From Psammoneis japonica (Eukaryota), in contig QPGO01000028.1 of assembly GCA_008632985.1 (NCBI GenBank), forward strand, positions 181,598-245,597: DNA of 64,000 nt, written 5' to 3'. The notes beneath the pieces were generated by a model that was not told the DNA's origin, did not search any database, and saw only the letters and a list, made by a program, of their open reading frames with translations. Of this stretch, positions 1-64,000 are shown piece after piece. Both the position numbers and the translations under genes were made by a program. The number at the start of each line of letters is the position of its first letter. The stretch's first letter is position 1.

Positions 1-1775
1 GCAGAATGCAGGTTTTCTGAGCATCATCAGCAACATGCACTTTGGCCTCATTGAATGCATGGGCCCATTCTTCCTCTGTGCTGCACTGCAGCATTGTCCG
101 GAGGTAGTCCTTTGTCTTTTCATGATGGAAAATGCTAAAATTGTCAGGGTTTGGCCAAACTTCATTGAAAGCATGGTGAAAATCACACCGCAGCACAATG
201 TCAAGGTCGTTGCCTGGGCTTTCGACAAAGCCACTGGTTGGGTGCTGGTCAGCAAAGATGATCCTGACATCTGAGATTTGCCACTTGTTTTCCATGATGC
301 TTTCCACAGACTCAAGAACAAAATGACAGTGCTTGTGATCCTCCTCCAGGCAGAGGCCTTGTGCAACAGCACGAGGTTTCATCTCAGAGTCCTTCACTGC
401 CGGACCAATGTATGGCCAACCAGCCTTGTTGTGCTGTTGCTTCTGAGCATCTAGGTGGAGCACATCACCACACCTCTTGAGGTCACGTTTCATTTCAAGG
501 GTCATGTGGCAAACTGCTTCTGGTCTGCCATTGTCATCACTCATCAATCGGAAGTCAAATCCATGGTTTGATTCTTTCATGGCTTCAAGAAAATGAAGTG
601 CATTCCAAGTGGATGAGTCCTCCTGCATCACACGTCAAAGCATGGCATGTAGATTCTTTCGAGCAATGGTTGAGTCACCAATGATGAATTCATCAGCTGC
701 ACTCTTTCGGCATTTCTTTGCCAGGTCTTCTGCAAACTGAGCTGCAACCTGACACTCCTGGGGGTCTGCATTGATCAACCATGTTTGGACATGACGCTTG
801 AAATTTTTTATGAAGGTTGCATCCATTGAGGCACAGACTGGCATGTGCTTCTGCAACAATGGCCGCAGTTCCCTGGGCTCCACTGATGGATTTGACTCAA
901 TCCGATCAATCACTGACTCAAGATGAGCAAGATTTGGTTGGAGGTTGCCACCAGTCTCTTTTGCCTTGCGGTGGAAAACCATGTTGAGGTCATGAGAATG
1001 GTGACAGTTTGCTGGGGCAATCTTCACAAGGTGAAAAATGCCTGGTTTTGTTGTGCCCAATTGAGGGTCAACACACTTGTTGACAAGAGAGTGCCGAATC
1101 ACAAATGGACATGTTTGCACTGCTCTTTCATGGACTGCTTCTGGTGCCTGCGGCTGCCACTGCCTTGCAATTGATCCAAAGGCTTTCTTTTTTTCTCTTT
1201 GCATGCATCTGACTTGGTGTCACTGAAGTGACAAACAATTTGCTTCCCATCATGAACACAAGAAATGGCCCACACATCAAGAAACTGGATGGCAGCTTGG
1301 TGCAACTGCTTGCAGCCAGCAAAGTGACGACCATCAGGAAACATGAGCTTGCACTTTGTCTTGAAAGAATCTAGAGATTGTTGGCTCTCATTGGCATTGG
1401 AGATGTCTTCTTCTGTGGGAGCAAGTTTAATGATCTCTTGTGCAAGATCCTCAGTTGACCAGCTCTTCTTGAGAAGTTCCTTGCTCTGCTCTTTGAGAGG
1501 GTGTGCTTCAGAATGCTCCCCACAATTGTTCATAAATGAAGGCATTGAGACCTTTTTAAGAGAGGGAGGGGGTGGAAGCACTGGTTGAGAGGAGGTGAAC
1601 TGAGCAGAGTCTCAGTTGCACCACTGTCATCTCCACATGTGTCAGAAATTGCACTGTCATTGTTTTCCAACAGCTCTTGCTGGGAGCTTGACAAATCATT
1701 GTCATCACTTTTGTCTGCCTCATGATCTGAGGACAAAAGGATAGATGAACCTTCATTGGTGTTTGACATCATGTG
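1..1775 (-). pseudogene. Mutator-like (MULE) transposase relic, frameshifted and hypermutated; runs off the window start
   Basis: Minus-strand frames (ORFs 1099..1581 and 635..1204, then downstream) read FDFRLMSDDNGRPEAVCHM..GDVLHLDAQKQQHNKAGWPYIGP..VRIIFADQ, resembling the first and second catalytic Asp regions of MULE transposases; TA nearly absent. Confidence 0.65.
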
Positions 1776-2239
1776 TGAAACGACAAGTTGACAACAAACA
1801 AGTGCAAGCCACAACTGTGTGCACTGCGGTGCATGTGTTGTCTGTTGTTGGCTCACCAAAAATCCTGGCGCGACAGAGACGTTATGAGCGAACAGTGAGC
1901 GTTAAAGTGCATTTTGTGGCATTCATGAACATGAATGCAAAATGAGATTGTTGCAAGATTCATCTGCCACGTCATTTTATTTAAAGAAGATTCGTGGTCT
2001 GCATTTGGTCTAGCGTGCAGTGGTCTGTCACGACCAGTTCTGCTCCAGCTGGCTAGAATGTCATTTGCGTTGCAGTGCTTTGCGGGGCGCCCGTGCGGTG
2101 ACGTCTAAAAATTAAAAACTCTTGGAAGCTCCGGCGACTCTATGTGGGAGACAACCCAACCAAGAATCTGAAGCTTTTTGAAATTGTGGGTCGGGAGAAT
2201 GATGCCCAGCCAAATCAAATTGTTGTCAAAGCTGTCTTC

Positions 2240-2685
2240 TCACCTCAATGTCAATTTTGCCATGTCTGCAAGAGCTGTGGCTCTTAATTTCTGTGTTAAC
2301 TCCAGAGCTTTTTTCTTCCCAACTCGCTGTGCAAACAATTGCAGCCATCCCCGAACCTCGTCATTCGCGCCTGCAATTCTTCCAATCTCAGCCAGGCGTG
2401 ATTCGCATTGTTCATCCGATTTTCGACCCTTGCATTCTTCCCTAGGACCAATGCAATGGTGCACTCGAAACAATGCTTCTGCACAGGAAACAAATGTGTT
2501 GTGAATGCACAGAGCGTCCGTCATGTGGTGGGGAGACCCCACTTTGCTTCCATCATAGCGCGAGGCATCCACCAGTGGTTTTCCTGGACATCTGTTCTGG
2601 TGTGGCTGATGACAGCGATGCCGCAGTGTGTGGAATTGATTTGGATCAAAGCCGTCCGGGACTTGGGAGTAAGTTTCATTGGAAG
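2240..2685 (-). pseudogene. 3' part of a glycosyltransferase (GT92/GT2-like) pseudogene split by the Copia insertion
   Basis: Reads SNETYSQVPDGFDPNQFHTLRHR..GKPLVDAS..LFRVHHCIG directly beyond the TSD; continues the fragment at 9904-10757 with a frameshift. Confidence 0.5.
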
Positions 2686-2973
2686 ACTTGGGATGCAACA
2701 ATGCACTGTGTGGGATGGAGAGTTCAGGACTCTCTTGAGGTTGTGCAATGCAACAGAGGATGACAAGAAGCAGTTTTGGGACAATGAGATGCGCCAAAGA
2801 TGCAAATTGTGAGAAGATCTCACGAGGGATTGGAGATGACATTGTGACCCAATGGTCGTGTGTGTCACTCCGATTGCTGTCGCTAGAAGACTCAACGGAC
2901 ATTTCTTCCGGAAGAAGAGATCCATGACCGGAAGCGTCATCCGTGAATCAGACTCGGTTGTTGACTCGTGACT
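2686..2973 (-). repeat. 3' LTR of Copia element 1
   Basis: Direct repeat of 9616-9903 with 8 differing dinucleotide sites; preceded on the minus strand by polypurine tract GGTTGAGAGGGAG. Confidence 0.95.
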
Positions 2974-3009
2974 CTCCCTCTCAACCGAAAAGAGAAGGAG
3001 AACTGTCAG

Positions 3010-6000
3010 TCACCAGCCCATGAGGGCTTTGCGACCAGCACGGAATAGATCAACAGTCAACCCTTTGGCAAACTGGTCAGCAAGCTGTGCAGCTGAGCTC
3101 ACAGGCTCAATTTTGATCTCCAAAGCCTCAACTTTAGCACAAAACCAATGGTGGGGAATGCCGATGTGCTTGGTTTGTGGGGACAATTTTGGCACACGGG
3201 CAAGTTGGAGGCAGGCAGCATTGTCTTCGTACACAACGGATGCTGGGAGGTCAGTGGAGTCAATGGGAGAATCCTCAGTTCCGTCGTTGGCGTGTCGGAA
3301 AGCCTTCGAATGTGTCGAAATGTCGGTCTGTCTGTCCGGCTGTCCGAAAACGAGCGCGTTGATTTCCTTCACGATCTCGCGAAGGGGGATGAGATCACGC
3401 ATCGCTTGGGAGAGGGCGACACACTCGGCTTCCATGGCAGAGAGTGCGACGAGGGTCTGCAACTTGGACACCCAGACAATCGGACATCCTGCATGACAAA
3501 TGACATGTCCCGTGCGTGACTTGACAGACGTGGGATCTTGTCCATCTTCAACACTGAAGAGTCCCGCGAAATCAGCATCAACATGGCAGTCGAGTCGTTG
3601 ATCGGCGGTTGGAGTTAGGATGAGTCCTTTATCGGCCGCATCCTTCAGGTGACGAAGAATGCGCTTGATGGCCGCAGCGTGGGAGGCCTTGGGTGCGCAG
3701 GAGAACCGTGCGACTTGATGGGTCGCGCAAGCAATGTCCGGGCGGCTGTTGGACGCTAGATGCATCATCATGCCGACCATGGAACGGCAGTCATGAGGCT
3801 CATCGAACGGTGGCCCGTCGGTGTCGCTGCCAGCAGGAGCAGGCAAGGCAGGAGTGGGTGCGCCGTTGCACTCAGTCATCTGTGCAGTGTGGAGAACTTT
3901 CTCAATTAGGCCGGGTTGGGTCAGGAGGAATCGGCCGTCTTCGAGCTTTTGAATCTTGATGCCTGGAAAGTTGCCGACTTCGCCTTCATCACGTAGATCA
4001 AAGACATGGCGTTGCTCATCGTTGGAAATGCCCAACTTGGCAATCTCTGCTTCCAAGGCTTGGGCCGATGCGCCGGCGAACACGGCATCATCAACATGTG
4101 CCACACACAACACACCCTTTTTGAAATAAAGACAAGGGTCAATGGCGGATTGAATCCATCCTCTTTCGAGCAATCCGTCCCTCAGCTTTTCATGGAAGCA
4201 CTTGGGAGACTGGCGCAGGCCGCACAGGCCTTTCAATGATTTCAGTGCCAGATCGGCGCCCGATTTTGGCTGGAAACCCTTGGGAGGCTCTACACAGACC
4301 TTCTCCTTGACATCAGCTTGGCAGAAGGCTGCAGTGCAGTCCACTTGACGTGCAGTCCAACCTTCCTTGAGCACCGTGGTGAGGAGAAGGCGCATGGACG
4401 ACCATTGCACTGCCGGCGCGTGGGTCTCGAAAAAATCGATCCCGTGTTTCTGTAAATCGCCGTGAACGCAATGTCGTGCCTTGCACTTCAAGGGCGTGCC
4501 ATCCGGGAGTCGTTTGAGTTTGAAAGCCCATGTGCCGGGTAGCACATTCACATCTGCCGTTCTTGGCACCATTTCCCATGCACGTCGGTGGAGCAGCACG
4601 TTGGCTTCAATTTTCACAGCCTCAACCCACTCTTCGGATTCATCGCTGCGCATGGCCTCGTGNNNNNNNNNNNNNNNNNNNNNNNNNNNNNNNNNNNNNN
4701 NNNNNNNNNNNNNNNNNNNNNNNNNNNNNNNNNNNNNNNNNNNNNNNNNNNNNNNNNNNNNNNNNNNNNNNNNNNNNNNNNNNNNNNNNNNNNNNNNNNN
4801 NNNNNNNNNNNNNNNNNNNNNNNNNNNNNNNNNNNNNNNNNNNNNNNNNNNNNNNNNNNNNNNNNNNNNNNNNNNNNNNNNNNNNNNNNNNNNNNNNNNN
4901 NNNNNNNNNNNNNNNNNNNNNNNNNNNNNNNNNNNNNNNNNNNNNNNNNNNNNNNNNNNNNNNNNNNNNNNNNNNNNNNNNNNNNNNNNNNNNNNNNNNN
5001 NNNNNNNNNNNNNNNNNNNNNNNNNNNNNNNNNNNNNNNNNNNNNNNNNNNNNNNNNNNNNNNNNNNNNNNNNNNNNNNNNNNNNNNNNNNNNNNNNNNN
5101 NNNNNNNNNNNNNNNNNNNNNGGAAGCCCGTGCCAGCTCCCTCTGTTTACGTTGAAGTTCTTCCGGAGTTGACCAATCGTCTTGAAGATGAATCGACTGG
5201 TCTTTTTCGAGGGGCATCTGGACACTTTGGTCCAGGCATGACTCTTCCCAGTGGCTTGGCGGCTCACTCTCCCTCGCGATCGAAGAGACGGCAGCAAAGA
5301 GATCGTCAAACACGACATGGCACTGGGGAGTGACGCTTCCTGTCTGAAGATTGAGCACAAGGGGCACCTCGCTGGAGTGGATGCTGCTCAAGCCGAGGAA
5401 GAGACCACGACGAGTGCGGGGTTGCCAGCGGGGCAATTTCTTGCCTTCTTGAAGTTTCGGATCAAGGACATAAACCGGACAGCCCCAGACGTGGACATCG
5501 CGAAGACCATGTCGGGGTGCAGCAGTGCCGGTAAAAATGTCCGTGGGGCAGCAGCCTTGAGCGTTGGGAGTCACGTCATAAATGTGCGTGGCATGAGACA
5601 CGGCCACAGGCCACAAAGAGCTGTCTGTGCCCCCCTTCCAACGGATGGATGCGTGGAGAAGCATCGCTCTCGCCATGTTGGAGACTGCAACGCCGTTCTG
5701 ATGGTGGGCGTTGGTTCCGCAAAAACGTAGACGTTGTTCGTGCTGTCGCATGTGTTGCACAAAAGCATTGGCCTTGAAAGCGCCAGAATCGGCAAGAAAT
5801 TCTTGGATGATGACGCCGTGGTCCATCGCGTGCTTTTCAAACGCTTGCTTCGCTCGCACCGTTTCCACAGCAGAGAAACCAAGTTGGTGTTCAATGTGTG
5901 GGTAACCGGAGGCATGATCCACAAAAATGCAGCCTCCTTTGTATTGCTGGGACGAGGCCTTCCCGCAGGAGTCGCAGGTTCGGCCGAGGAGACGGGATTC

Positions 6001-9000
6001 GAAGTGATCCACGCTGACGGCTTGGCCTGGGCGTAGATGCTCGGCTCGAAGAGCACCCTCACGCTCTGGAGTAGCCGCATGTTTGGCAGACTTGAGGGTT
6101 CGGCGATGTCCTTTGGCATGTTCGCACACCTCGCACCGCGGAATGTCGCAACGCGAAGCATGCTTGAATTTGGGTCGGAGAAAAGGTTCGGCCCGAAGCA
6201 GGCCTTGGATGCGTGGCACATTCAGGTGACCAAACCTGAAGCGCCATTCTTGAAGGAGCTTCTGACCGGAGGTGAGGTTCTGGTTATCCTCGTGCAACAC
6301 AGACAGATTGACTTGAGGAGCGGGTGCCACCCCGTTGGTCACAGACGCAACCGGCAAGTGATTTGACGCGTGCGCGACCTTGAGCGAACCGACGCCATCA
6401 ACATGCACTCGAAATGAGTCCTCGTCTCCCTCACATTTTCCTGTCACGCCATGTTCCTTGCTGTGGAGGCGTTGTGGGGATAGAAGACGTTGTCCGGCCT
6501 GAGGCACATGGTCCGCCATCGTCTTGACGACGAGCTCAGAGCCGTCCTCGTTGTGGAAAACCCAGGAGACGGGTCCGATGCCGGCGATGGTTAAGCCATT
6601 TGCTAGACCCCCAAGCTTCAATGGGCCATCAGGGATCGTCAGAGGTCCGACAAAGTCGTTTTCATCGTAAGTGATGGCCAAGGATGCGCCAGTGTCGCAT
6701 GTGACGGTGTGGCGCTCATGTGCCAGGCTCAGCAAAGCTTGCGGGTCGGCGGCGAGTTGTGCTAAAGAACGTTGGCCTGTCAATGCCTGCACAGAGGTGT
6801 GAGTGGGATGGGCTTCGGTTCCGTCAGCAGCTGCCTGGAGAAGCTTCACAGGGTCTTGCCATGGAGTGGTGTCCACGAAACCAAACTTGGTGGACAGCTC
6901 GTCGAAACGAAAACAGTCCGGAGAGAGCTCCTCAACCGTGTCAAAGCAGTGGCTCAGCTCGGTAGGGAGCGGGCCGAGGGCTTCCTCTGAATCACAGGTG
7001 TCGAAGTAGGACTCGGGGTCTTCTAGAGCTGGAGGGACACAGCAGCCTGGGGAAGAGCATGCATCGTTCTCCCAGAGCTGCGTGAATTTCTTGCTCAGAT
7101 GATGGTCCGGATCGCGCTCCACAAATTCGGCAAGCACTTGTCGCGCCTTGATCTTGTTGCATTCCACCAAACTGCCCGGATCTAACACTGTCTCATCGTC
7201 CAGTTCTTCAATGATCGAGTGGACCTGAGAGCCAGCTTTGGAGAAGCGAGAGGGGACATTGGAGAATGGATGCGTGGGAAGCTGACCGTTGAAAACAGAC
7301 GCCCAGACCATGATGGCTCCAGTCAGCACCATCCAGGTAGAGGGGAAACCGTGAATGGTTGGGATGAATGCCTTACGGCGCACACAACGAGGCAAGACAG
7401 GAATCGGCGCACAGCAAATGTGTGGCACCGTTTCCCAGAACACAGCAAACAGCCAGAAAACTCGGAGCTTCAAGAAGTTCCAGAAGAGCTCAAGACGAGA
7501 GCTCGGCGTTGCCTCCTCGATGCCACAATCAACATCTTGGGGTTCGGGATCATAAAATTCGAAACCGCGATGCTGGGTGCTTGGAGGTAAGTGCTCGTAG
7601 CTGTCTTCGAAAGGTGGGATGCTTGCCCCGGAAACGAGATCGTCTAACACGTCGTCGGACAGACCTTCCACGTGAGTTGCGATCGTGTCATAAAACACGT
7701 CCGGATTTTGAATCTCATGCACAGTGTGGGCCGGAAATAGCTCGATGGCTGACGGCAGGGAGTCAAAAGAGGAGTGAGCGTCGGAGCACTCGGAGTAATC
7801 GTCAGCGTCTTCGGGGTCAACCGTTTCAACCAAGATGGGAGCGGGTTTGGCCACGGCAGTCTCCCTCTCGGCCGATGGAGCAGGAGTGAACGTGACGGTC
7901 GTAGTCACTGGAGTCGAACTCAAAGAGTCGTCCACAGGTGCACACCACATGCCGCAATAAACCAGCTTGTTAGGGTCAGAGGGTTCGTCTGTAGGCGGAG
8001 ACGTCGTCTGCTTGGGAGGACCAAAAGGAATGCCCAAAGAGGGGTCCGACACAGCAGATAAATTTGCCGCAGCGGTGGTTTCGGTTTTGACAGACGGTTT
8101 CCCGGTGTGTTGAGCGGAGGAGTGGCCTTGACACATGCCCTTCTTGCCCGTTTCCTTGTTCACACACTTGTCGCACCAGTGCCAGGTCGTGCCTTTCTTG
8201 TCGGTGACAGTGGCACCTTTGTGAACGAAACGCCAGGCCGGCTTGGGTGGTTTCTTGGAAGGGTCAGTCTTCCGGACATCCGGAGGGTCATCCTTGGACT
8301 TGTCTGCCGTGCCCTTTTTGTCCTTCTTGCATTGCTCCTTGCAGGCAGGACACGTGCGTTTGGTGCACCCAACCTTGCCACAGCCGCAGCAATGCTTTTC
8401 CGAGTTGTCCTTGGCGAGGTTGGATTCCGGGAGCTTGGCTGCTAAGGCAGGCCAATCTTCATCGCTAATGAGTTCGCCATGGGTCTTGGTGATCCAGCCA
8501 ATGAGGCCAACAGGTCCAAGATCCGCACAGTCGGCATCCTTGGGGACTTCTGCCGGGTCACGCAAGCGACATTTGCGCTCCAAGCGCTTGACGGAGTCGA
8601 GCTTGGCAAAAACTTGACGATTGAAAAACTCGGAGGATGTCTTTGATGCCTCAGATAAAACAGTGGACCCAGTTTCAACTGGTGACGCACAGTCCGTCTG
8701 CATGATCTTGAGCAGGTGCAGAGCTTCGGTTGCAAGCTCGGTGCAGTCCTCGCCAGGGCAGGCATCCAGAGTTAAGTCGTTCAACTTTTCCTTGGCGGCC
8801 TTGACGTCAACCAGAGCACTGGCGTTGCAGGCATCCAGAGCCATCATAAATGAGACAGACCCCGGAAGATCCCTGCAGTTCTTCAAGTGATTGAACTTGG
8901 CTTCAATCTTTTCACGGAAGGTTTCGGTGACACGCGACTTGACGATGAGTTGTGACAAGCCGATGTCATCGATTTCACACTGATCGTAGCCTTCATCACC

Positions 9001-9462
9001 TGTGGCCGCCACACGGGTCTCACATTCCTTCTCAAGGTCTTTGACAGTGAAGGCGTGAAGATGATCAAAAAGGTGCACGACCTTGCCGTCGACTTTCTTG
9101 AGATGGTAGAAAGTTTCTTGTCCGTGCGACTCGACCAAGTCCTGAATGGTCTTGACAAAGTGGTCTTTGTCCAGTTCAGTGCTGGAACCGTTGGACAACT
9201 CAATCTGGCCGTTGAACTTGGATGTGGTTGCCGAAGCGAGTTGATCTCGGAGAGATGGATGGCGACGCTGCGAGGCAAAACGGCAGGTGCGGGTGTTGGT
9301 CTGCTCGCACTTGTTGTTCAGAGCCGAACCACCCAGATGCACTCCATGAGAGTGGTGGATGCCGCCGCGAAGCGGCGTGGGGATCGCAGGAGGGTTGGTC
9401 GAGGTTTGCATCTTGGCAAAGGCCTCAGCAAACATCTTGACGGCATCAGGATCCATGGACAT
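3010..9462 (-). pseudogene. Copia gag-pol polyprotein (Gag zinc knuckle, protease, integrase, RT, RNase H); open but mutated
   Basis: CCGCGKVGCTKRTC knuckle, DTGAS protease, GH..CEVC pre-integrase, VDHF..DSG integrase, KARHCVHGD / LCGLRQSP / HVDD RT, DADFAG / EAEC / EDNAAC / LADQFAK RNase H; spans an N gap. Confidence 0.93.
4663..5121. other. Assembly gap (459 N)
   Basis: Run of N between the integrase and RT regions. Confidence 0.99.
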
Positions 9463-9603
9463 GGTTGTGGATGATTCGACACAGAGGATCGATTAGCAGG
9501 CAGGGATTGCGACACAGAAGATCGCCGTTGGACAGGATGTCGTCTGCAACGAGACAAACGAGTGGCAGCAACTCCATCACGAGTTGACACCGGTGCATGG
9601 ATT

Positions 9604-23939: not shown

Positions 23940-23940
<1 letters not shown>

Positions 23941-23970: not shown

Positions 23971-23971
<1 letters not shown>

Positions 23972-42885: not shown

Positions 42886-42919
<34 letters not shown>

Positions 42920-52599: not shown

Positions 52600-55500
52600 G
52601 CTTCAGACTTGAGAATGTCATCAAGCCAAGTTCATAAGCCTTGCACAGCAGTGGTTTCTCTCCTCTCATCACTCACTCTTTTAACTTGTCACCCAACCTC
52701 TGGGTGTGGCACATCATGTGGGGCAAAAAAAGCGTTGCATTGGAAACACCCAGATGCGGGTGGTGCTGGTCTGGGACTCCAACAATCTGGGTCTTGCCTG
52801 CCTGTCATAATCCAGGTGTTTCCTGACTGTAATCTCAGACAAGTGTCTCTCATTAAGTTGGGTGTTCCTTTTCACCTCAGTTCAGAACTGGCCAAGTTTG
52901 TGGGGGCTCCTTGACCTCCAAACTGCGCCCCACTTTGGACAATGGACATTCTTGCCCACAACCCCATCTTTGACATTTTCTTACAAGTGCACTTGGTTGC
53001 TCTTTCATTTTGTCTCATCCTGCAAGCTTTGTGGGTTTAAAGCATCAACTCAAACATCCACACATGCATTCCTGACAAAAAATCCTGTCACGGCCAACCC
53101 TTTTGCTTTTGATGTGTTCCAGATTTCATGCTGTGTGTGCTGCAATTCATGCTCACACACCACTTTGGTTTGTTGCCATGGCCACAACTCCTTCTGTGCT
53201 GTTGCTGGTGGCCATGGACTGCAATGGCAGCTCCTCTCCTGGTGGCACACCCCACCCACCCTCTCTCTTCTTCCCCTTCTCCTTTCTCTTTTGTTTCTTT
53301 TTGGGGCTTCCTTGGACATGTTTGCCTTCTTCTCATGTCTCATTTCCTTGAACCATGCACTGAAACCTTGGTTGTTCTCTCTGTCTTGCTTCACCCACTT
53401 GTGCAACTCTTTGCATTTCTGAATCTCTTGTTTGCTCCACCCTTGGTTCTGCTTTGCTGACTCTCCCCTTCCCTGTGGACTTTGCATCCATTGCATCTTC
53501 CTCCATCAGCTTTCTGAACCTTGCAATGTTGTCTTTGTTCTCTGTTTTTTCTGCCATGTTGGCTGCCTTGTCATGGAAGTTCTGGTGATTTCTTTCCCCA
53601 CCTTTTCTGATGGTGCCCTTCTCCTCCTGCCTTTTCTGGTGCCCTCCTGTTGCCAACAAAAACAAAAGTGTCATTTGCACAATGAATGCAACATTTGCTC
53701 ACATTCAGTTGCCCCAATGACTGAGTGCTCAAATGCTCACATCCACACACCAAACCACTTGGCCACCAAGTCACTCATTCATGGTTCCCATCTGTCTCAA
53801 CCTGACTTGATTTAATTTGGTGCTCTTGCCATTTGCCATGTTGCAATTGTCACAATGAACCATCTCAATTGCCCAAATGCGTGCAGTCTCTGCTGTCATC
53901 ACATGCCAGATGTTGAGCATGATTTGGTGGCATGGTCAATTTTTGGTTTTTTCAACCAAGATCATTTGTCACCCTGACCTTTTGACAGCTCCTCTTGGAA
54001 GAAATTCTTGTGCAAGAAACAGAGTTGTTGTGATCTTGGTGGTGGCTGTGGTGTTTTTGTGATTGCTTGTCACTTGCTTGCTCCCACCAGCAGCGAGGTC
54101 TTTGGCATTGAGGAGTGTGCTGCTCCTCATCACAAGTTGGGCAGCACTTGTTGGTGTGAATGGCATGCACCCAACTTTGACAAATTGATCCTTCCTCAAT
54201 GAAGATGACTCTGTTTGTGGTTTGCATTGTGGGCCCAATGCCAAGTTTTTTTTTCCAACAACCATGAAGGGCCCATGTTGTTTGACAACAATGCTGCGCA
54301 GAGTCACCTGGAGGAGATCTTGACCAATGAGTGCACAGAAGGCATGGTTGTTGTCTCACACCAAATGTGATGCTTTGTGGACATGTCAACAAATGAAGCA
54401 AGAATGAGTCTTTTTTGCACCAGCACATCAAACAGATTTGCAGTGAAATCCTGGGGTGGACTGGTGGCAGCACCACCTTCACTTGTGCACTGAACAGAAG
54501 CTTTGCTCCTAAAACTTAAGATGACTGTTGCCAAACATTGCAGAGAAATTCACAATTTGCCTGAACAGCAGGAACAAGTCAATGACAAGATGAAGCAATG
54601 AACGGAACTTTGCAGTCCTGAACAAGTGCACATTTGCTGCACATTGGAGACAGGATTTTTGTCTTGAATGTGAGCAATGCAACATGGCACTTAAAATGCA
54701 CTTTGCCAGTTTTGGCACAAAGTTCCTTCTCACAGATGCAGAATGCACAGAACAAAAGCATGCAATGCAACAAGTCAAGAAGATTGTCCACTCTGCACCA
54801 CCAATTTTTCTGTGACAGCTTCTTCTTTTGCAAGTGACCTGAAGGATTCAGGAAGACAGTTCTCTGCTTTTGCATCAATGGTTGTGCCAGGGGACTGTGT
54901 TTTTGTGAAAAGATGTTGTCGTCTGCACGAGCATCTGGCAAGTCATCATTGCCATCAACAGTTGCTGCAGACAAGCCATTGGGCTGGGAATTGACAACAG
55001 ATCTGGCAAAGCCATGAAAGGCCAATGCTTGTGCCGCAATGATTTGCATTCTTTCCAAATAATTTTTTGGCACATCAAATGCATTTGTCTTCCACCTGGT
55101 TGGAAAATGTTTTCCAGAATTCTGACAAACCATGTTGACAAATTTGTTGCATCACATGCTGATGATGCTTGGGGTCACCTGGATCATGCTTTGTCAAACC
55201 ACTGCTCTTGTGATTCAGCATCTGGCATTGGCAGGACAGTTGTGGTGGTGGTTGGTGCAGTTGACAGAGCAAAATTTGTTTGATCATCGACTTCAATGTT
55301 GTTTCACTTGGCGCGGTTCTGTTTCATCCTCATCCTCTTCTTTGGGCTCACTTTTGGAAGATTCTGTCACTTGCTCATCTTGAATGCAAGCAACTTGCCA
55401 ATCTTTTCATCCCAAGTGTGAGTCAGCTCAGGGTGGAAAGACCACAATTCATTCTCAATCAGGAACAGTCATGCCTTTGACCTGGACAACACCAGGTGAT

Positions 55501-56150
55501 GCAAAATGACTCTGATGCAATCTGGTTGAGCTCTTCTTTTTGTTTGTCAGGCTTTGCACTGACTGTCACACCTTCATCATTTGTGGAGCAATGCTTGATT
55601 CCATCACATGTGTTGTGTCCAAGACCATCATGCCAAATGCAACACATGGGTTGTCATCCATGTTTGCTGGGAAATGTGCATTGTTAAAAGCATGCCAACC
55701 AAAACATTTTGAAGCATGTTTTCATTTGTTGGATCAGAGCAGAAACAGTTTGGTTTCTGCTTTCTTGTGTGCTTTTGCTTTTCTGTGTTTTCCAGATGAT
55801 TTTTTGACATGTTGACACCACTGGATGTTGTCATTGTCAGAGTCTGGACTCCATGTGGAGAGAGCAAGCAGCTTGATGAAAGCTTGGTTGAAAAACTTTA
55901 AAAAAAAAAAGAGAATTGTCTGACAGCAGAAAAGTTTGTTCAAGTTTCCAAAAGCTAAATTGAAGAGCAGCAATCAATGCTTTCAGAGCAGTTGCTGGCA
56001 TTTGTGTTGAGTTTAGATTCACAAGTTGCCCCACATTTTTGGTTGCCATCCAATTTTCCTTTTTCCCGTTGTTTGCCAATGTTCATCATTGAGGTTCTTC
56101 CTCTTCTTGTCTGACTGGTTCCAAAACAATTTGTTTGTTGTGTGCAAGAC
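52600..56150. other. Hypermutated, unidentified repeat/TE-like block
   Basis: TA and CG both nearly absent; no protein family recognised. Confidence 0.45.
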
Positions 56151-56169
56151 AGCTGTTTTGGAAACACTG

Positions 56170-57027
56170 ACAGAAAAGCCAACGGCTCTGCAGTGACATC
56201 TCTGATGGCAAAGCAATGTCTTGATGTTTTTTGAGATGTGGTGATTTCAAGTTCCCAGTGCTGAGCTGCACCATTTGATGACTGGTCTTGCATGACGTCT
56301 TTGTCTGCTCCTTGCATGACTGGCCAATTGCAAGCCAGAGGAGTTGTTCTGTCACCAGCATAAATGAAGCCACAAAGAAGAAAACATGTGAGCACCTCTG
56401 CTTCTCACCCCCACTCTTGGAGCATCGCACTGAGCTTTCCAACCTGTGAGCGATGGAACTGAGGCTTTTTCCATTGCCTCTGTCAGCCTCCCAGCCTCCA
56501 TTGTGTGTGAAGACAATGCTGCATGGCTCCGATTTGCATGCAAGCCAAAACCATCCCCACAAACTGAGCACACAGGATTTCTGCACCACTGGTCTCACAC
56601 CAAAGTTGAGGTGCTCCAGAGATCAAGATTGAGCCTGTCAACTCTGCTGCACAGCTTGCCAGCCAACTCACCAAAGGTTCAGGTGCTGATCCATTTTGCA
56701 TTGGTCGTAAAGCCCTCATGGGCTGGTGATGCCAGTTTTGCTCTTTTCGGTTGAGAGGGAGAGTCTCGAGTCTGATCCACAGATGATGCTCCACTTGATT
56801 GCATGTTGGCAACAGCAATGGGGATGACACTGGCAACTGTTGGGTCAGAATGTCATCTCCAGTCAACCATAAGATCTTCTCACAATTTTTGTCTTTAAGA
56901 GCATGTCATTGTCTTCTGATGCATTGACAATCCTCTGTCTTACACTTTGCAACCTGCTGAAGAGAGTCTCCGCTGCTGAAGAGAGTCTCCGCTCTCCCCA
57001 GTCACCGTGACTTGTTGTGTCCCAAGT
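56170..57027 (+). mobile_element. 3' remnant of a Copia related to element 1 (RNase H, PPT, 3' LTR 56762-57027)
   Basis: LPASIVCEDNAA..IKIEPV.SAAQLA..GRKALMGW*, same PPT CGGTTGAGAGGGAG, LTR AGTC...TCCCAAGT. Confidence 0.85.
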
Positions 57028-57578
57028 GGTGCGACTGTGGCAAAGGGTCAGTTTGCCATCGAATCACAAGACAGCAATCGGAAAGCCACATCTGTGCCGC
57101 CCATAAATTGGAAACCAAGGAGGATTTTGAGAAAGCACAGTGGGTGCGGCAATGGCATGAACAAGCAAGAAAGCAGTGCAGCTGCTGTTTGTGCCGTCTC
57201 CACTAGAGAGGACTCTCTACAGTAGAGAGAGGTGAAACGCCACATGCTCGAATCTGTGCATGCATCAAAGTTTTCTGTGTGCGTTTTACATTCTCTCGAT
57301 CTAGCCAAACCTTTCTGCAAGAGAGAAAGAACCAATGCGTTGAGGTTTGGTGGTGGCATCTTATTGTCCAAATGCGTGGATCTTGAAGCTTTAATCAATC
57401 GACAGTGTGTTGAGATGCGAGAATACACTGAACGAGCCAGCAAGAAACGGTTTCGACAATATTAAAGCAAAATTTATGAGAACAACCTCTTTACATCAGA
57501 ACAAAAATGGCCTCTGCTGTTCTATTCGACGGTTATAAGTTCTACCTTTCATTTGTTTGTACTCAGCGCCGTCCTTTT

Positions 57579-58951
57579 TTAGTTTTCAGCATCAATGTGC
57601 AACACGCGTTCAAGTTCTGCCAAACCCTCACATGCTTCAATGATTTCGACGGAACAGTCTTCCTTGATCATAACGCCTAGAGCTGGTTCGTTTCCAAGCG
57701 AAGAAAGTTCCTCCACTTCTTCCCACGCAAGCTTGGCTTCTGCAGACCTCTTTCCAAACTTTTTACTCACCAATTTAGCATTGGCAATGGACGCCTCCAA
57801 TGCTTCCAAGTTTGATCCGGCTTGCGGTTCAACGGATGGTACCTTGATTGCCTTCATTTGACTATAAATATCACTGTTAGACTTATTGACGACGACATCG
57901 TCCGGCACAACGTCAAGCTCTTGCATAATTTCAAACACTTCGGTTCGATACCCATGAAATGAACTTTCATCGGGCCATGATGCGATCGACTCTCTATATT
58001 CATAGAAAAAAAGCGATTTTAACATTCGTGAGAATCACACAACATGACCGTAATGTTTTGAGCTTTCGGCCAGAAAACAATCAACTTACTTTCTGGCTGT
58101 AGAAGCCGAAACTTCTTCCACAATATCCCATGCCGTTCGTGCCTCAGGTGAGTTCTTGCCATATGTCTTGGCCGCCGAGGCTGCTTCTTTGATTGCGTTT
58201 GACAGTGCTTCGGGTACATTGCTGACCTTGTTGCTATCCGAGTGCAACACGCGTTGCAACTCTTCCAGTGCCTCACAGGCTTCGGCCGCATCTGTCAAAC
58301 ACGATTCTTCGTCAATCATACCTCCAAGTGCTGGATCACTCCCAAGAGAAGAGATTTCATCCACTTCTTCCCAAGCAAGCTTGGCTTCGGTCGAATGCTT
58401 TCCCTTTTCTTCTGAAATGCGCTTGGCGCGAGCCACGGCTGCCTTTAGGGAGGCAGATTCGTGTCCGGCTTGTGGTTTGGAGGGCGGTACCTTGATTGCC
58501 TCGAGTTGTGAAATCAAATCTTCCTGGTTTACTTTTTCCACGACGTTATCGGGTGCCACATCAAGCTCTTGCATTAGTTCAAAAACTTCAGTACGATATC
58601 CGTTAAAGTGACTTGTTTCATCAGAAGATGATTTCCTGTGCAAGGTCGGTACAGTGCGCATTGTTAGAACACACGAGAACAATGAAAAAAGAAAAACTCT
58701 TGTAAAACTTCCTCAAATTATTCATACCTATTATGTGCCGCAGCGATTTCTTCTGCAATATCCCACGCGGTACGAGCCTCAGGTGAGTTCTTGCCATATT
58801 TACGGGAAGTTTGCACGGCCTCTTGAATGGCTTCGGATGGTGTCACCAGAGAGCTAGAAAGAAATGTATTAGTTGCTCTCGTTTGTACACCGAATGGAGA
58901 AATGAAAGCCTTGGTGGAGGCAAATAGCGTAAATGCAAGAGAAAGCTTCAT
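57579..58951 (-). CDS. Plastid-targeted protein with four CP12-like repeats; exons 58951-58728, 58635-58090, 57993-57579
   Basis: Signal peptide ending TKA-F; motifs EARTAWDIAEE, EAKLAWEEVDE, EARTAWDIVEE, EAKLAWEEVEE; two phase-2 GT-AG introns keep the frame. Confidence 0.85.
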
Positions 58952-59172
58952 GATGATGCAGTGATTAAGAAGAACTTGTCGTTGTACCTTGTGTTTGAAA
59001 AGATCGCTAATTTTCAAAATTGTGAGAACTTTCAGAAGAGATTTCTCCGTGTTATTTCAGTCGCGCATGGGCACTGACTCAACCGAATTTTCAGACAAAA
59101 GGAATTCTTGGAATTTTGGTTGCTGACGTGGATGGTGGTGTGGAGTGCTTTTCTATTCGCCAATGCAAATGG

Positions 59173-61741: not shown

Positions 61742-62989
61742 TCAGTGCTCCATCAAAGGAAAGCGAGAGTCGTGGGGGTTCGTCATGTCCAAGAGAAGAG
61801 CCACAAGCCCAGCCGCGCCCTCGTACAGCGAGTACGGACGATCCGGTACGAGCTCAAGTTCTTCAAAAGCATTGACTGCAAAGCAAGTAAAATGCGAGGC
61901 TCTTTGTAGCCACAATGGGTTTGACGGTTGTGCTCTGGCTATGGATAACAAAGCGTACGCATTTCCGGAGATTCCGTGACAAAGCCCAACCCCTTTTCGC
62001 AAGAGTCCTCGTTTCCAAATGACATTCTCGGCAATTCGCTTTGCTTGATCAAGAAAACGTGATTCTTGGTAGAACTCAGATGCTTTTACCAAGAGCATGA
62101 CATGCCCAGGCGCACCGTGACACCAGTGTACCAACCGATCTCCGCCATGGCTATCCACACTACTCATGAGATTTCCCGACTCAAAGCAGTGCTCACTCAA
62201 ATCATCAATGGATTGGCGAATCAATTGACATATTGGAATGCTTAAATGGGCTTCCAAGAACTCATATTCTTCGGCTTGCAGGTACATCAAAGTGTGCAGA
62301 ATGCCCACATGACCATGAGCAGCACCCAAGTAGATCTTGTTGTGCCACGTCCATAGCAAAGGCATCTTGCTGCCACATCGCTGCGCTTTTTCTCGCCCTT
62401 GAGTCAAAATTGACGTGGCCAACTCAATGACTAGATTGCGGCCTATTGTAGAATCATGCAACTGCTCACGAAGAAACAGAGCAACCTGTAGTGCTCCGGC
62501 TCGGCCGTACAAGACTTCGCATTCGTCGCCGGGCAAAGCGCTGCATTCTCTTGATAGAACATGGAGTAGCTGTGACACACTCTGCCGGGCTTCTTGTTGT
62601 CTACCCAGCTCGAACTGCAAGGCACAAACCGCAGCCATTGCCCCAACCCATGGTCCCTCCAATAATGTGACGCGAAAATTCCTACTATCAGTTCTCCTCC
62701 TTTCTTGGTAATCGACTGCCTCTTGAGCAACCGTCAAGGATTGCTCCAAAAGCTTCTTTGCTTCCACAGGGTTACTTGCTTTGATCACCTGAGCCATTCG
62801 TAACCCAAGGTATACACGAGGCCCTAACCCACCGCAATACAATGTACCGAGAGAACCAGAGGATGATGTGTTGCGAACACATTTGTTCTGAAGATTTGTT
62901 GCCATTCTCATAAGCTCTTCTTGACTCGGCAACTCCGCATCACTCGAGTCGGACAATGTATTTTGATAATAGCGTGAGGCAGACATCAT
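61742..62989 (-). CDS. LanC-like protein (LANCL/GCR2 family)
   Basis: EVLYGRAG, YLGAAHG, HWCHGAPG, GLCHGISGN and PDRPYSLYEG motifs. Confidence 0.93.
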   Translation of the reverse strand: MMSASRYYQNTLSDSSDAELPSQEELMRMATNLQNKCVRNTSSSGSLGTLYCGGLGPRVYLGLRMAQVIKASNPVEAKKLLEQSLTVAQEAVDYQERRRTDSRNFRVTLLEGPWVGAMAAVCALQFELGRQQEARQSVSQLLHVLSRECSALPGDECEVLYGRAGALQVALFLREQLHDSTIGRNLVIELATSILTQGREKAQRCGSKMPLLWTWHNKIYLGAAHGHVGILHTLMYLQAEEYEFLEAHLSIPICQLIRQSIDDLSEHCFESGNLMSSVDSHGGDRLVHWCHGAPGHVMLLVKASEFYQESRFLDQAKRIAENVIWKRGLLRKGVGLCHGISGNAYALLSIARAQPSNPLWLQRASHFTCFAVNAFEELELVPDRPYSLYEGAAGLVALLLDMTNPHDSRFPLMEH

Positions 62990-63345
62990 GTCCTAATGAC
63001 TGTGAAAAAAGGGATACCACACGTTAGAAAGTGCAGGGTGCGTGGCTCATTGAGTGTCAATAGTGTCATGGTCGATCGAGAATCGAGATGCACGGCAGCG
63101 GTTGGGGTTGAATGTGTCATTGAGCACCATGGCTGGTGCATGAGGAGTGGCACCTTCAACTGTGCCAACCAGTCGACCTCAATCACTGGTTGTGGCCATG
63201 TGAAGTTTGCAGGCAAGAATGGCATTTGTGGCTCTCCCCTTCCTCTGTGCCGGACATTGAGTTGGCTGGACCCTTTGATGTTCAGTCCTCTGGTTGTGAT
63301 GACAGATCTTGCCATGATCTGGTCATGGACTTGTGTGCTGGTGCA

Positions 63346-63457
63346 GATGAATGTCAGCTCAGTGCCAACCCCTGCGCCAATGTTGCAAACAGCTTGTGCC
63401 TGAATTAACCTGGAAGCTGTGAACGGGTGTGCAGCATCAGCTTTGAGGGTGATGGTG
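63346..63457 (+). pseudogene. Calcium-binding EGF-like domain relic inside a hypermutated block (62990-64000)
   Basis: DECQLSANPCANVANSLCLN*PGSCERVCSISFEGDG fits DEC..C..C.N.PGSY.C.C..GF.GDG. Confidence 0.55.
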
Positions 63458-64000
63458 CACTCCACAGTGACACCATGGCAGAATGATTCATGATTGATGA
63501 GACCTGCATGACCTTCCCAACAGGCAGCACCAGCAAGGTGATGATGGTGAGCAGCTGTGACAAAACAGACCCTTTGTTTGATCCAGGTGCATTGGAGCAA
63601 GACAAGCCCCTGGTGACAGGTCTTTGAAAGCCCTGTCAGCTTTGCACACTCCATCTGCTGAACCATTTGTCTCTCTTGTCCTGAGCATTTCCCATTGGAT
63701 GCTTCAGACATGACTGGGCCTCCAAGCTGTGCTGAAAATGGGGTTCTGCCATCATGCACAAAGCACACCAGCATCAAGCAGGCCACATTGATGATGGTCA
63801 TCACCCAGTCAACCCTGATGATGAAAGGACTGGTTTTGATTGTGTCATCATTTTCTGCAATCAAACAAAGAAATGGAGGTGGCACTGGACTCTTTGTGCC
63901 ATCTTCCCTTGCGTCTTTTCCCGCACCAAAAACCTTCAGGACTGTGCCTTGAATCTTGTGAGGGATGACACCAGCTTGGTTGCCACAGATGAACACTGGC

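Follow-up and report, generated by a model that had tools for sequence, protein, structure and literature searches.

The 64,000-nt stretch of Psammoneis japonica DNA analysed here (the window) carries, as comparison of its related copies showed, the footprint of a DNA-level process that turns TpA into TpG or CpA in this diatom genome. Our preferred reading, which we hold with somewhat more belief than doubt, is a mutator that acts on TpA in silent DNA, likely by adenine deamination of the TadA/ADAT2 type, and that is a system of the same type as in Bigelowiella natans.

In 1-kb sliding windows over the seven blocks that an earlier note on this DNA had listed as depleted of TA and rich in TG/CA, the observed/expected ratio (o/e) of TpA was 0.00–0.25, and the ratios of TG and CA were 1.6–2.1. 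Pooled (44,967 nt), the seven blocks hold 245 TA, against 2,897 expected from base composition and 1,569 expected at the outside-block ratio, and TG and CA stand at o/e 1.67 and 1.72. The pooled TA o/e of 0.08, compared with 0.54 in the DNA outside the blocks (18,574 nt; CG 0.96, TG/CA 1.19), confirmed the listed depletion. The 500-nt windows were bimodal, with TA o/e ≤0.15 in 75 of 126 and a second mode at 0.35–0.6. An independent segmentation of the window, using a threshold of ≤3 TA per 300 nt, gave blocks at 1-1828, 2436-10068, 10392-13434, 14027-15635, 19306-43256, 46906-47779, 52981-57068 and 63145-64000, which agree with the listed coordinates within about 100–400 nt. Block 19306-43256 encloses a less TA-depleted LTR element at 35.4–39.2 kb. 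The AA/TT o/e was alike inside and outside the blocks (1.23/1.20 vs 1.19/1.20), and the GC content was near-equal (0.47–0.48 vs 0.46). The CpG o/e in the same blocks was 0.43 overall and 0.04–0.3 in the oldest parts; this loss by CpG to TpG/CpA was overlooked in the earlier note. The TA deficit of 1,324 and the CG deficit of 1,455 sum to 2,779, and are matched by a TG+CA excess of 2,818, so that the books balance. The hypermutated blocks, without strand, and the coding traces in them are as follows.

1-1828: old hypermutated block, TA o/e 0.09, CG 0.20.
2-634, minus strand: weak trace of a MULE-type transposase (Pfam ZSWIM1-3_RNaseH-like, E 5.8e-4, below the cut-off).
10392-13434: old hypermutated block, 10 TA in 3,043 nt, TA o/e 0.05, CG 0.27; a further mutated copy, at 41740-43351, is collinear with it, and it holds the longest run without TA (1,352 nt, 11840-13192).
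14027-15635: old hypermutated block with a mutated copy of HA-gene 5' sequence; its edge with normal DNA lies at 15600-15700, within ~100–200 nt.
19306-35419: largest old hypermutated block, 53 TA in 16,114 nt, TA o/e 0.05, CG 0.31; a patchwork of relics of repeats, in which 30373-30756 is a weak NIF-phosphatase fragment.
39186-43256: old hypermutated block, TA o/e 0.06, CG 0.24.
39072-39917: weak protein-kinase fragment, in or at block 39186-43256.
46906-47779: small hypermutated block on its own, with normal genes on either side, 3 TA, TA o/e 0.06, CG 0.25.
52981-57068: old hypermutated block, TA o/e 0.05, CG 0.12.
56434-56913, minus strand: old Copia 3' relic inside block 52981-57068.
63145-64000: hypermutated block running off the window end, 1 TA, TA o/e 0.02.

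Repeat relics are present in every block, and no viral relatives were found for two block ORFs. Read-derived contigs (~60x word depth) match TA-free stretches of 2.6–3.5 kb with 0–2 letters different, although the read run behind them may be the source of the assembly itself. A 2,661-nt contig matches 10475-13135 with 1 letter different, and contigs match 20419-23928 with 2. The TA-free sequence, which the reads thus back, is not a base-calling artefact, with the same proviso on the origin of the run. The window contains one sized N gap (4663-5121).

The direction of change was read from copies of a MITE-like element and other repeats.

13530-13925, no strand: clean MITE-like element with 33-nt terminal inverted repeats, identified by inverted repeat and composition.
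25279-25542, plus strand: hypermutated MITE-like copy; 18 clean-copy TA became 9 TG, 6 CA, 1 TA and 2 other.
29923-30067, plus strand: hypermutated partial MITE-like copy; 12 clean-copy TA became 6 CA and 4 TG, and 2 were kept.

The clean copy, which was used as the unmutated reference, is nested in an old block; its TA o/e is ~0.8 and its CG o/e 1.4. It belongs to a very abundant family, with a summed contig depth of 104,087 vs ~60–80 for single copy (~1,700x). That such an element has a clean copy inside an old block counts against the preferred reading, and means that the mutator works in episodes, has a length limit or has ceased to act. In four pairs of clean and mutated copies, 47 clean-copy TA became 22 TG, 20 CA, 3 TA and 2 other (21 TG, 20 CA, 3 kept and 3 other under slightly different alignment handling). 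The claim that TA reads as TG or CA where both kinds of copy coexist therefore holds for 42 of 47. The polarity is given by sites at which two clean copies concur on TA and the third copy has TG or CA. From clean to mutated copies, A changed to G at 42/94 positions after T, and at 9/167 after A, 5/102 after C and 7/111 after G (5–6%). C changed to T at 35/102 positions before G, 5/104 before A, 0/59 before C and 8/88 before T. The TG and CA outcomes were interspersed (runs-test z from -2.5 to +2.0; +1.47 in the 24-kb block) and near-equal in number, which indicates that both strands are hit. The process is thus an A:T to G:C transition on either strand, with the choice independent at each site.

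The timing was examined using two LTR retrotransposons with intact 5-bp target-site duplications, both members of multi-copy families.

2681-9908, minus strand: Ty1/Copia LTR retrotransposon (RVT_2, E 2.6e-33; LTR alignment and flanks), LTRs (2686-2973, 9616-9903) flanked by the duplication GGAAG (2681-2685, 9904-9908); TA o/e 0.13–0.35, CpG still 0.8–1.0; reading frame open on either side of the N gap.
35369-39096, no strand: young non-autonomous LTR element, identified by LTRs, target-site duplication and composition; LTRs (35374-35649, 38816-39091) flanked by the duplication AGAGT (35369-35373, 39092-39096), with a 42-nt tandem array inside the element (36188-37021); TA o/e 0.05–0.34, CpG 0.45–1.1.

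The two LTR pairs, aligned over 288 and 276 positions, differ at 12 and 15 of them. Each of the 27 differences lies in a YR step (8 TG/CA doubles, 7 TA versus TG/CA and 4 CG versus TG/CA), and none was found at the remaining aligned positions. Four TA were conserved and at least 15 changed, while 31 CpG were conserved and 4 changed. Since every difference is of the type TA or CG to TG or CA, the mutation postdates the point at which the two LTRs became separate copies, hit each LTR on its own, and was far faster than background. In the simplest case, the mutator would act in place after insertion. Its rate is >100x that of background substitution and above that of CpG decay, and it runs to near saturation. 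A second, slower process, CpG to TpG/CpA decay as from deamination of 5-methylcytosine in silenced transposons, acts on the same DNA.

These LTR data also bear on the candidate that the earlier note had named Pol-eta-like error-prone repair, in which a Y-family polymerase changes WA to WG during repair synthesis in heterochromatin. Pol eta has a bias for A>G at WA, of which TA is one form; AA, the other form, was nevertheless at background (9/167 vs 42/94 for TA), its o/e (AA/TT) is equal inside and outside the blocks, and near-complete saturation with 27/27 LTR changes at YR steps and no collateral ones is unlike patch synthesis. We therefore disfavour this candidate as very improbable; the other two chemistries in the earlier note, adenine deamination and a miscoding modified T, both fit the sequence.

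The Copia element (family contig depth 1,300–4,500 vs 60–80 for single copy) has HVDD at its reverse transcriptase motif, where the relatives have YVDD, and a Tyr content of 0.4–0.9%. In 30 outgroup Copia polymerase proteins, 14 columns hold a conserved Tyr, and the window copy keeps none of them (7 His by CAY, 5 Cys by TGY, 1 Trp and 1 Ile), compared with 236/285 of the other conserved columns. Element death comes by missense, Tyr to His or Cys with the YVDD motif included, and long empty reading frames remain, because TA to TG/CA makes no new stop codon. Among 71 environmental contigs with related Copia elements, none has TA o/e <0.30 in any 1-kb window; their CpG o/e goes down to 0.03–0.06 with TA at ~0.45.

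Two further readings can be weighed against these results. RNA or cDNA editing of the ADAR/APOBEC kind at retrotransposition, by which copies would be born mutated, is hardly credible. It would suit the 5' U preference of ADAR-type enzymes (noted in bioRxiv 10.64898/2026.01.13.699255) and the fact that LTR elements make up most of the identifiable targets, but both strands are affected in one ORF (7 Tyr to His and 5 Tyr to Cys), a TIR-type DNA element and a partial gene-5' duplicate are mutated as well, and the old relics, at TA o/e 0.02–0.05, are past any single editing round. We give equally little credence to there being no mutator at all, with the pattern coming from a sequencing or assembly artefact or from imported elements natively poor in TA by selection against UpA. 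RNAs are known to avoid UpA under selection, and the only DNA run that contains the stretch may be the one from which the assembly was built. However, the pattern tracks element boundaries and target-site duplications, copies of one family differ within the same assembly, ~60x read-derived contigs support the sequence, selection on UpA is impossible for non-coding relics and the MITE-like element, and the outgroup proteins show the ancestral Tyr.

The genes between the blocks were compared with each other and with the silent DNA.

16069-18971, plus strand: spared host gene with HA domains, covered by a spliced 2,465-nt contig.
43257-46905, plus strand: spared paralogous HA-domain gene region, TA o/e 0.47, duplicating 16602-18947 at 81% identity.

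The exons of the HA-domain gene have TA o/e 0.46, and the four stretches skipped by splicing (438 nt) hold 18 TA (o/e 0.70). In the gene-bearing 2.3-kb duplication, 38 of 60 TA were kept. The HA-gene 5' sequence is clean in its gene-associated copies at 15940-16340 and 43800-44240, and mutated only in the silent-block copy at 14440-14940. Genes, introns and the 2.3-kb gene duplication are thus spared by the mutator. It works within discrete domains that consist of relics of transposons, both LTR retrotransposons and a TIR-type DNA element, and of other duplicated DNA that is silent, with the neighbouring genes and introns left alone.

The earlier note had called the system repeat-targeted and RIP-like. 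A true RIP analogue, in which homology above a length/identity threshold triggers the mutator at a life-cycle stage, e.g., before meiosis, is in our estimate improbable. Repeat relics in all blocks and the multi-copy families of both young elements are what it would predict; a short (~400-nt) high-copy element could stay clean under a length threshold; and saturated loss of TA and CG leaves copies ~85% alike (an estimate), so that recognition could persist. Against it, the duplication of 2.3 kb at 81% identity is unmutated, a repeat clean in two gene-associated copies is mutated only in the silent block, and mutated copies of the same short element exist. The oldest blocks are single-copy today at ≥85% likeness, and a copy of the ~1,700x repeat is clean. 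In B. natans, a viral insert of 186 kb, present in single copy, is the chief target, with events during asexual propagation. The results fit a mutator guided by chromatin or 'foreignness' no worse than one guided by homology. The proposal of a distinct mutator that removes TpA on both strands of silenced transposon-derived DNA and leaves genes alone is supported, and its repeat-targeting part is not supported in the form given.

As TpA is self-complementary, sequence statistics cannot separate 'A after T' from 'T before A' as the target. The most likely chemistry would be enzymatic deamination of DNA adenine needing a 5' T, by a TadA/ADAT2-type deaminase. What draws the enzyme would be chromatin that is silenced or foreign, and not repetition in itself. 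The natural tRNA target of these enzymes, A34, always follows U33. The surviving TA do not resemble known ADAT tRNA contexts, which counts against the ADAT2-type reading: ATAT was found in 0/245 in the blocks vs 63/727 outside, ATAC and ATAG were also preferentially lost, and CTAA and TTAA were 3.7-fold over-represented, a comparison confounded by new TA arising from abundant TG/CA. Modification of the thymine of TpA is a less probable alternative. A TET/JBP-type dioxygenase, for instance, would oxidise it, and the resulting 5-hydroxymethyl- or 5-formyluracil would miscode as C at replication. All the results fit this alternative equally, because T>C before A complements A>G after T. 5-Formyluracil mispairs with G, and 5-hydroxymethyluracil in dinoflagellates prefers TpA. 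The same enzyme class acting on 5-methylcytosine could add to CpG to TpG change, and one activity would then link the loss of both 5-methylpyrimidine-purine palindromes, TpA and 5mCpG. However, the two losses are uncoupled: young LTR elements have TA o/e 0.13–0.35 with CpG 0.8–1.1, and the environmental Copia relatives have the reverse (0.03–0.06 for CpG, ~0.45 for TA). In B. natans, 230/231 events are A:T to G:C and none is C to T. Among the matches listed by a literature search on 5-hydroxymethyluracil in diatoms, there were dinoflagellate reports only. Adenine deamination remains our preferred chemistry.

Among the known systems, deamination of 5-methylcytosine accounts for the CpG to TpG/CpA half of the changes (35/102 CpG bases), and the environmental Copia relatives show such decay alone; it cannot remove TpA and is slower here than the TpA process. 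Ascomycete RIP is likewise transition-only, dinucleotide-specific and domain-limited; it puts inserted transposons permanently out of action and can be traced by its footprint in dinucleotide indices. It changes C:G to T:A, mainly CpA to TpA, and creates TpA, AT-rich isochores and stop codons, whereas here A:T to G:C change destroys TpA, GC% is unchanged and C before A is at background (5/104). The APOBEC3 and ADAR systems of animals share deaminase-type transition hypermutation against mobile elements, and ADAR and TadA-type enzymes prefer a 5' U/T. APOBEC3 and ADAR act on RNA or on one cDNA strand in replication and are strand-asymmetric; unlike them, the process here affects both strands of resident chromosomal DNA, DNA transposons included, to saturation.

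The earlier note knew of no description of such a system, but TpA-specific A:T to G:C hypermutation of integrated NCLDV and virophage DNA has been reported in the chlorarachniophyte B. natans (Mettrop et al., April 2026, bioRxiv 10.64898/2026.01.13.699255). According to this preprint, two integrated viral regions gained 231 single-nucleotide mutations in mutation-accumulation lines. A>G or T>C changes accounted for 230 of them and all fell on TpA; the rate was ~1000x the genomic one, and the authors proposed an ADAT2-like DNA adenine deaminase. That system and ours are alike in acting on TpA only, with TpG and CpA products and so on both strands, in keeping to discrete domains of DNA that is foreign or silent, and in exceeding the genomic rate by orders of magnitude. 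In both, TpA-poor, CpA+TpG-rich clusters are enriched for reverse-transcriptase and DDE domains, and no stop codons are made, which leaves many unannotated 'CDS'. They differ in the host (a rhizarian there, a stramenopile, the diatom, here), in the targets (giant-virus inserts there; repeat relics that include LTR retrotransposons and a TIR element here), in the depth of depletion (TA o/e 0.45 in the NCLDV region; 0.02–0.1 over tens of kb here) and in the evidence (de novo events there; historical copy and LTR comparisons here). As to the host, the named matches of one protein, at 40–46% identity, point to a diatom. That paper says nothing of CpG, which here is lost in the same DNA. The shared signature suggests the same kind of system, with homology assumed. 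As far as the literature search went, the process is described only once before, in an unrelated alga, and the window represents a second lineage, in which the footprint on transposons is far stronger.

Sliding 1-kb windows placed TpA at 0.00-0.25 of expectation, and TG and CA at 1.6-2.1, in the blocks that an earlier note, made from the sequence alone, had described as TA-poor and TG/CA-rich. The description held in pooled counts as well, and a blind segmentation returned the same intervals to within a few hundred bases. The seven blocks taken together (44,967 nt) contain 245 TA (observed/expected, o/e, 0.08), where 2,897 are expected from base composition and 1,569 at the ratio of the other 18,574 nt (o/e 0.54). 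The TA o/e is bimodal, 75 of 126 windows of 500 nt not exceeding 0.15 and a further mode lying at 0.35-0.6. CpG, whose depletion in the same blocks the note overlooked, is also low, at o/e 0.43 overall and 0.04-0.3 where the TA loss is greatest. The block deficits of TA (1,324) and CG (1,455) sum to 2,779, the excess of TG and CA is 2,818 (TG 1,404, CA 1,414), and none of the remaining dinucleotides shifts by more than 264. The GC fraction is 0.47 in the blocks and 0.46 outside, because the TpA process raises GC and the CpG process lowers it; GC content is thus no flag for hypermutated DNA.

The blocks are made up of a patchwork of mobile-element relics (Copia, an LTR element, a MITE-like element and a trace of MULE). 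They also contain several unclassified repeats common to more than one block and a partial copy of the 5' region of the HA genes. The identified features are as follows.

Normal stretches: host genes for a LanC-like protein, a potassium channel, an alpha/beta hydrolase, CP12-domain proteins and HA-domain proteins
2686-2973 and 9616-9903: LTRs of a Ty1/Copia element, target-site duplication GGAAG, RVT_2 (E = 2.6e-33)
13530-13925: clean (TA-retaining) copy of the MITE-like element, 33-nt inverted termini; mutated copies lie within blocks
30373-30756, + strand: weak NIF-phosphatase fragment (E = 9.7e-6), inside a hypermutated block
35374-35649 and 38816-39091: LTRs of a 3.7-kb non-autonomous LTR element, target-site duplication AGAGT, internal 42-nt tandem array
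39072-39917, + strand: weak protein-kinase fragment (E = 4.8e-7, under the Pfam cut-off), inside a hypermutated block
56434-56913: old Copia relic
57582-59056, - strand: CP12-like tandem gene cluster, three adjacent ORFs each with a CP12 domain (E = 7e-13 to 3e-5)

The Ty1/Copia assignment is further based on SH3_retrovirus (E = 2.6e-7), a weak Pol_BBD match and LTRs of 95.8% identity. All named relatives of the LanC-like protein come from diatoms (40-46% identity), with the best matches at 55%, and the host organism is most likely a diatom without a close sequenced relative. A Pfam search on 127 ORFs detected within the blocks just the weak MULE trace and the NIF fragment, and the HA and CP12 matches were in normal DNA. 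The NIF and kinase fragments derive either from host genes, captured or decayed to pseudogenes, or from a larger foreign insert; a homologue search for the kinase fragment found none and no viral relative of its ORF, and IMG/VR contained no relatives of two block ORFs. The 441-codon ORF at 25635-26957 has two weak relatives without domains among 1.84 billion representatives, and the ORF at 14327-15244, also in a block, was ruled out at the protein level as an HA-gene paralogue. The 42-nt array (36188-37021; periods of 84 or 126 nt can also be read) lies within an open frame of 488 codons for which Pfam gave no match. The CP12 cluster contains internal repeats (57597-57959 and 58242-58607, 67% identity) in DNA of normal composition. 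For the segment 19875-20541 the contig depth sums to about 64,000, about 1,000 times single copy, although the window copy is TA-depleted (o/e about 0.09). The segment includes a tRNA T-arm-like box near 20.2 kb, while no tRNA (ARAGORN) and no Rfam family was found in the window. It may represent a SINE-like family that still amplifies in the TA-poor state, and possibly escapes the mutator.

The spectrum of the changes was obtained from four aligned pairs of clean and mutated repeat copies, and expressed on the purine-carrying strand. A>G was found at 42 of 94 sites after T and at 21 of 380 after the other bases (9/167 after A, 5/102 after C and 7/111 after G), so that the change at TA is far commoner than in other A>G contexts. 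C>T was found at 35 of 102 sites before G, and outside CpG it stayed at background (13/251; 5/104 before A, 0/59 before C, 8/88 before T). Among 47 TA of the clean copies, 22 were TG and 20 were CA in the mutated copies, 3 were unchanged and 2 were other, and the earlier statement that TA becomes TG or CA on both strands was thereby borne out. A three-way alignment showed TA in both clean copies where the third has TG or CA. In the Copia RT/RNase H ORF, none of the 14 conserved Tyr columns (Tyr in at least 80% of 30 aligned protein relatives, 53-59% identity) is kept; they read 7 His (CAY), 5 Cys (TGY), 1 Trp and 1 Ile, whereas 236 of the 285 other conserved columns are kept. The Tyr of the RT catalytic motif is among those lost (YVDD in the relatives, HVDD in the window copy). 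The Tyr content of the Copia ORF is 0.4-0.9%, against 3.1-4.7% in three host proteins, and no Tyr-poor protein is found among the 120 listed relatives of the ORF (minimum 2.3%, median 3.3%). Because of the three-way alignment and the outgroup Tyr columns, the polarity is independent of the assumption that the clean copy is ancestral. The TG and CA outcomes are interleaved at random (runs-test z -2.5 to +2.0; local skew variance 1.2 against the binomial 1), and the record therefore adds up many single hits, each on one or the other strand; no strand tracts of TG or CA were found, single events being below the resolution. These results demonstrate a TpA-specific A:T>G:C process on resident DNA, and we have little doubt about the hypermutation itself.

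The analysis is based on the 64-kb window and one set of read-derived contigs. Contigs from a public run (about 60-fold word depth) match the TA-free sequence at 10475-13135, 14652-16340 and 20419-23928 with 0-2 other letters. The reads thus agree with the TA-free state, but the run may be the assembly's own source, and the match is consistency rather than independent proof. A sized N gap is taken as a sign of a scaffolded assembly, not of signal-level base-calling of modified bases. From a second run (X2, kind not recorded), a 2,465-nt contig joins five pieces of the HA gene in the first duplicate copy (16602-18947) and skips four stretches of 99-123 nt, in which the TA o/e is 0.70 (18 TA in 438 nt), as compared with 0.46 in the exons. 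An equal TA depletion in neutral single-copy DNA, which the note had named as an outcome against its proposal, was not seen in the introns (0.70), on the little such DNA that the window contains. X2 gives almost no cover of the old, most TA- and CpG-poor blocks, and this is not evidence of their silence.

The LTR pairs of the two young elements are a ready-made polarised natural assay of the process. The 5-bp target-site duplications are intact in both elements, so that each pair derives from a single insertion, with its two LTRs copied from the same template by reverse transcription. One pair differs at 12 of 288 positions and the other at 15 of 276. These 27 differences are all in pyrimidine-purine (YR) steps, namely 8 adjacent TG<>CA doubles, 7 TA<>TG/CA and 4 CG<>TG/CA, against no non-YR difference among the 564 aligned positions; 15 differences in the two pairs are TA-derived. 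A TG<>CA double is the signature expected of two independent hits on a single ancestral TA, and its origin from CpG is unlikely because 31 CpG are kept in both LTRs and 4 are changed. Therefore, most of the LTR TA was lost after the LTRs separated, independently in each, while ordinary substitution was undetectable. Some of the LTR TA loss may have occurred on replication intermediates, an explanation that is inapplicable to the DNA transposon and to the saturated relics. At 5899-5900 and 6552-6553, the high-depth contigs of other Copia copies have CA and the window copy has TG, so that adjacent doubles mark independent hits between dispersed family members too. Across the 20 kb compared with contigs, the places with other letters comprise 264 transitions and 85 transversions.

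TA was lost before CpG. The young elements have a TA o/e of 0.05-0.35 with CpG at 0.45-1.1, and the old blocks have 0.02-0.09 and 0.11-0.33, respectively. The 13 in-register 42-nt units of the tandem array (36188-37021) repeat this order in miniature: one TA-derived step is TG in 7 units, CA in 5 and AA in 1, another is TA in 7 and TG in 6, and a CpG step is CG in 8, CA in 3 and TG in 2, with one further G/A polymorphism outside this pattern. In a metagenome scan based on the Copia protein alignment, 71 environmental contigs with a related Copia had no 1-kb window below TA o/e 0.30, a result from a scan that is biased against mutated copies because one of its two search patterns includes Tyr. 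Several, among them L037, L041, L060 and L009, showed an extreme loss of CpG (o/e of 0.03, 0.06, 0.14 and 0.23) with ordinary TpA (about 0.45-0.8; about 0.45 for the first two). Methylation-type CpG decay without the TpA process thus exists in other hosts of this Copia lineage; it is common and can be separated from the TpA process, which among the environmental Copia contigs sampled is lineage-restricted. A metagenome scan with the mutated Copia ORF gave 33 pattern matches, none of which was a relative.

The note had called the process repeat-targeted, and on this the observations point both ways. Homology-dependent triggering, as in RIP, would account for the mutated multi-copy elements (contig depth 1,300-4,500 for Copia). 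However, a clean copy of the MITE-like element, which is the most abundant one at about 1,700 copies (depth about 104,000), lies in the window, and the old relics are single-copy at a likeness of at least 85%, with a depth of 60-80, as in genes. A gene-bearing duplication of 2.3 kb (16602-18947 and 44448-46640, 81% identity) is also spared, with 38 of 60 TA kept, 181 transitions and 116 transversions. Furthermore, of the repeat that makes up the HA genes' 5' region, the two copies next to genes are clean, and only that in the silent block is mutated. Copy number is therefore neither necessary nor sufficient for TA loss. The block edges are sharp (about 100-200 nt), with one about 400 nt upstream of an expressed gene, and genes with their introns are spared (TA o/e 0.46-0.70 in the 64-kb window). 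We therefore somewhat prefer chromatin state or 'foreignness' to RIP-like homology sensing as the target signal. The HA-gene segmental duplication serves as an internal control in its own right: duplication by itself does not trigger TA loss. The spectrum, the LTR timing and the spared genes together support the core proposal of the note, a distinct mutator, here acting on silenced DNA derived from transposons.

The process has consequences for annotation. Since TA>TG/CA can make a new stop only from an existing one (TAA>TGA) and destroys TAA and TAG, the blocks contain, with both strands counted, 334 TAA and TAG against 2,181 TGA, and ORFs of 150 codons or more occur at 1.22 per kb as compared with 0.75 outside (1.6-fold). 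With this loss of TAA and TAG, the Copia frame stays open through 1,457 codons on one side of the gap and 550 on the other, though the copy, judged from its sequence, is enzymatically dead. Stop-poor DNA thus yields many unannotatable 'genes', and such long false ORFs pollute gene sets and are a hazard for gene prediction. Conversely, any genome or metagenome can be screened for the process simply by looking for Tyr-free, His/Cys-rich ORFs.

As for the mechanism, a Pol-eta-type error-prone synthesis (WA>WG), one of the candidates of the note, is disfavoured because AA is untouched (9/167, versus 42/94 for TA). Among the candidates we prefer deamination of adenine in DNA by a TadA/ADAT2-type enzyme, at slightly less than an even chance. 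The tRNA target of these enzymes, A34, always follows U33, and this natural context would explain the 5'-T rule. The main rival is a modification of thymine, with miscoding by 5hmU or 5fU; because TpA is self-complementary, sequence does not distinguish an altered A after T from an altered T before A. The surviving TA hint at an extended context beyond TpA: they are scarce in ATAT (0/245, versus 63/727 outside), ATAC/GTAT (0.18-fold) and ATAG/CTAT (0.27-fold) and enriched in CTAA/TTAG and TTAA (3.7-fold), a comparison confounded by new TA arising from TG/CA. If the enzyme responsible is a DNA adenine deaminase that occurs in nature and strictly requires a 5' T, it would be of interest for base-editing research.

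To our knowledge, all hypermutation defences known before a preprint of 2026 (RIP, APOBEC, 5mC decay) change C:G to T:A, and an A:T>G:C process confined to TpA represents a different chemistry. Unlike fungal RIP, the present process leaves C>T before A at background (5/104), and it destroys TpA instead of creating it. Editing of RNA or cDNA of the ADAR/APOBEC3 type was rejected, since one and the same ORF carries changes from both strands (7 His, 5 Cys) and a TIR-type element and the duplicate of a gene 5' region are affected. Searches of the literature on diatom transposons, TpA or A-to-G hypermutation and 5-hydroxymethyluracil found no comparable diatom report, and term look-ups in two papers on diatom transposons, PMC2806351 and bioRxiv 2025.10.24.684338, gave no mention of dinucleotides, deamination or hypermutation. 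The statement in the note that no such system had been described is, however, outdated. According to the portion of the preprint available to us (bioRxiv 10.64898/2026.01.13.699255, 14 April 2026), two integrated viral regions received 231 of the 302 nuclear point mutations seen in mutation-accumulation lines of Bigelowiella natans. Of these 231, 230 were A>G or T>C changes, every one at a TpA; they arose at about 6e-7 per site and generation, compared with 3.5e-10 in the remaining genome, in some lines only. The same portion describes 124 TpA-poor, CpA+TpG-rich clusters and a TpA-poor CDS class rich in RT and DDE domains, proposes an ADAT2-like DNA adenine deaminase, and has no mention of diatoms, stramenopiles or CpG.

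As far as that text shows, the two systems share A>G/T>C on TpA, both products (TpG and CpA) and discrete domains of foreign DNA, here within 64 kb, and by this analogy they are probably akin in kind. A broader proposal, which we offer tentatively and as the less favoured side of the question, is that TpA editing of chromosomal DNA is an ancient immunity shared at least across SAR (Rhizaria and Stramenopiles), and that it is what chiefly and permanently inactivates transposons in this diatom. The agent would be a context-specific editor of DNA adenine occurring in nature, or one that modifies thymine; guided to chromatin that is silent or foreign, it would edit double-stranded chromosomal DNA in place, leaving TA-free, stop-poor, GC-neutral 'ghost' DNA, which standard repeat and gene finders would misread. 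Guidance by small RNAs is conceivable because a third run (X3; 0.16 million letters in contigs of 47-154 nt) covers, of the 20 kb compared, the clean MITE-like element at 13532-13871 alone; X3, which comes from the same sample and is of unrecorded kind, may be a small-RNA library directed at the active family. Unlike what the available text describes for B. natans, CpG>TpG/CpA is frequent in the target DNA here (35/102 CpG bases; CG o/e of the blocks 0.43), and this signal looks like a separate, ordinary process. The present case also differs from B. natans, as described there, in coming from a second, distant lineage and in a much deeper footprint on transposons, and a footprint near saturation over about 70% of the 64-kb window, in another algal group that is distant and ecologically dominant, suggests that such processes are widespread and not a peculiarity of one species.
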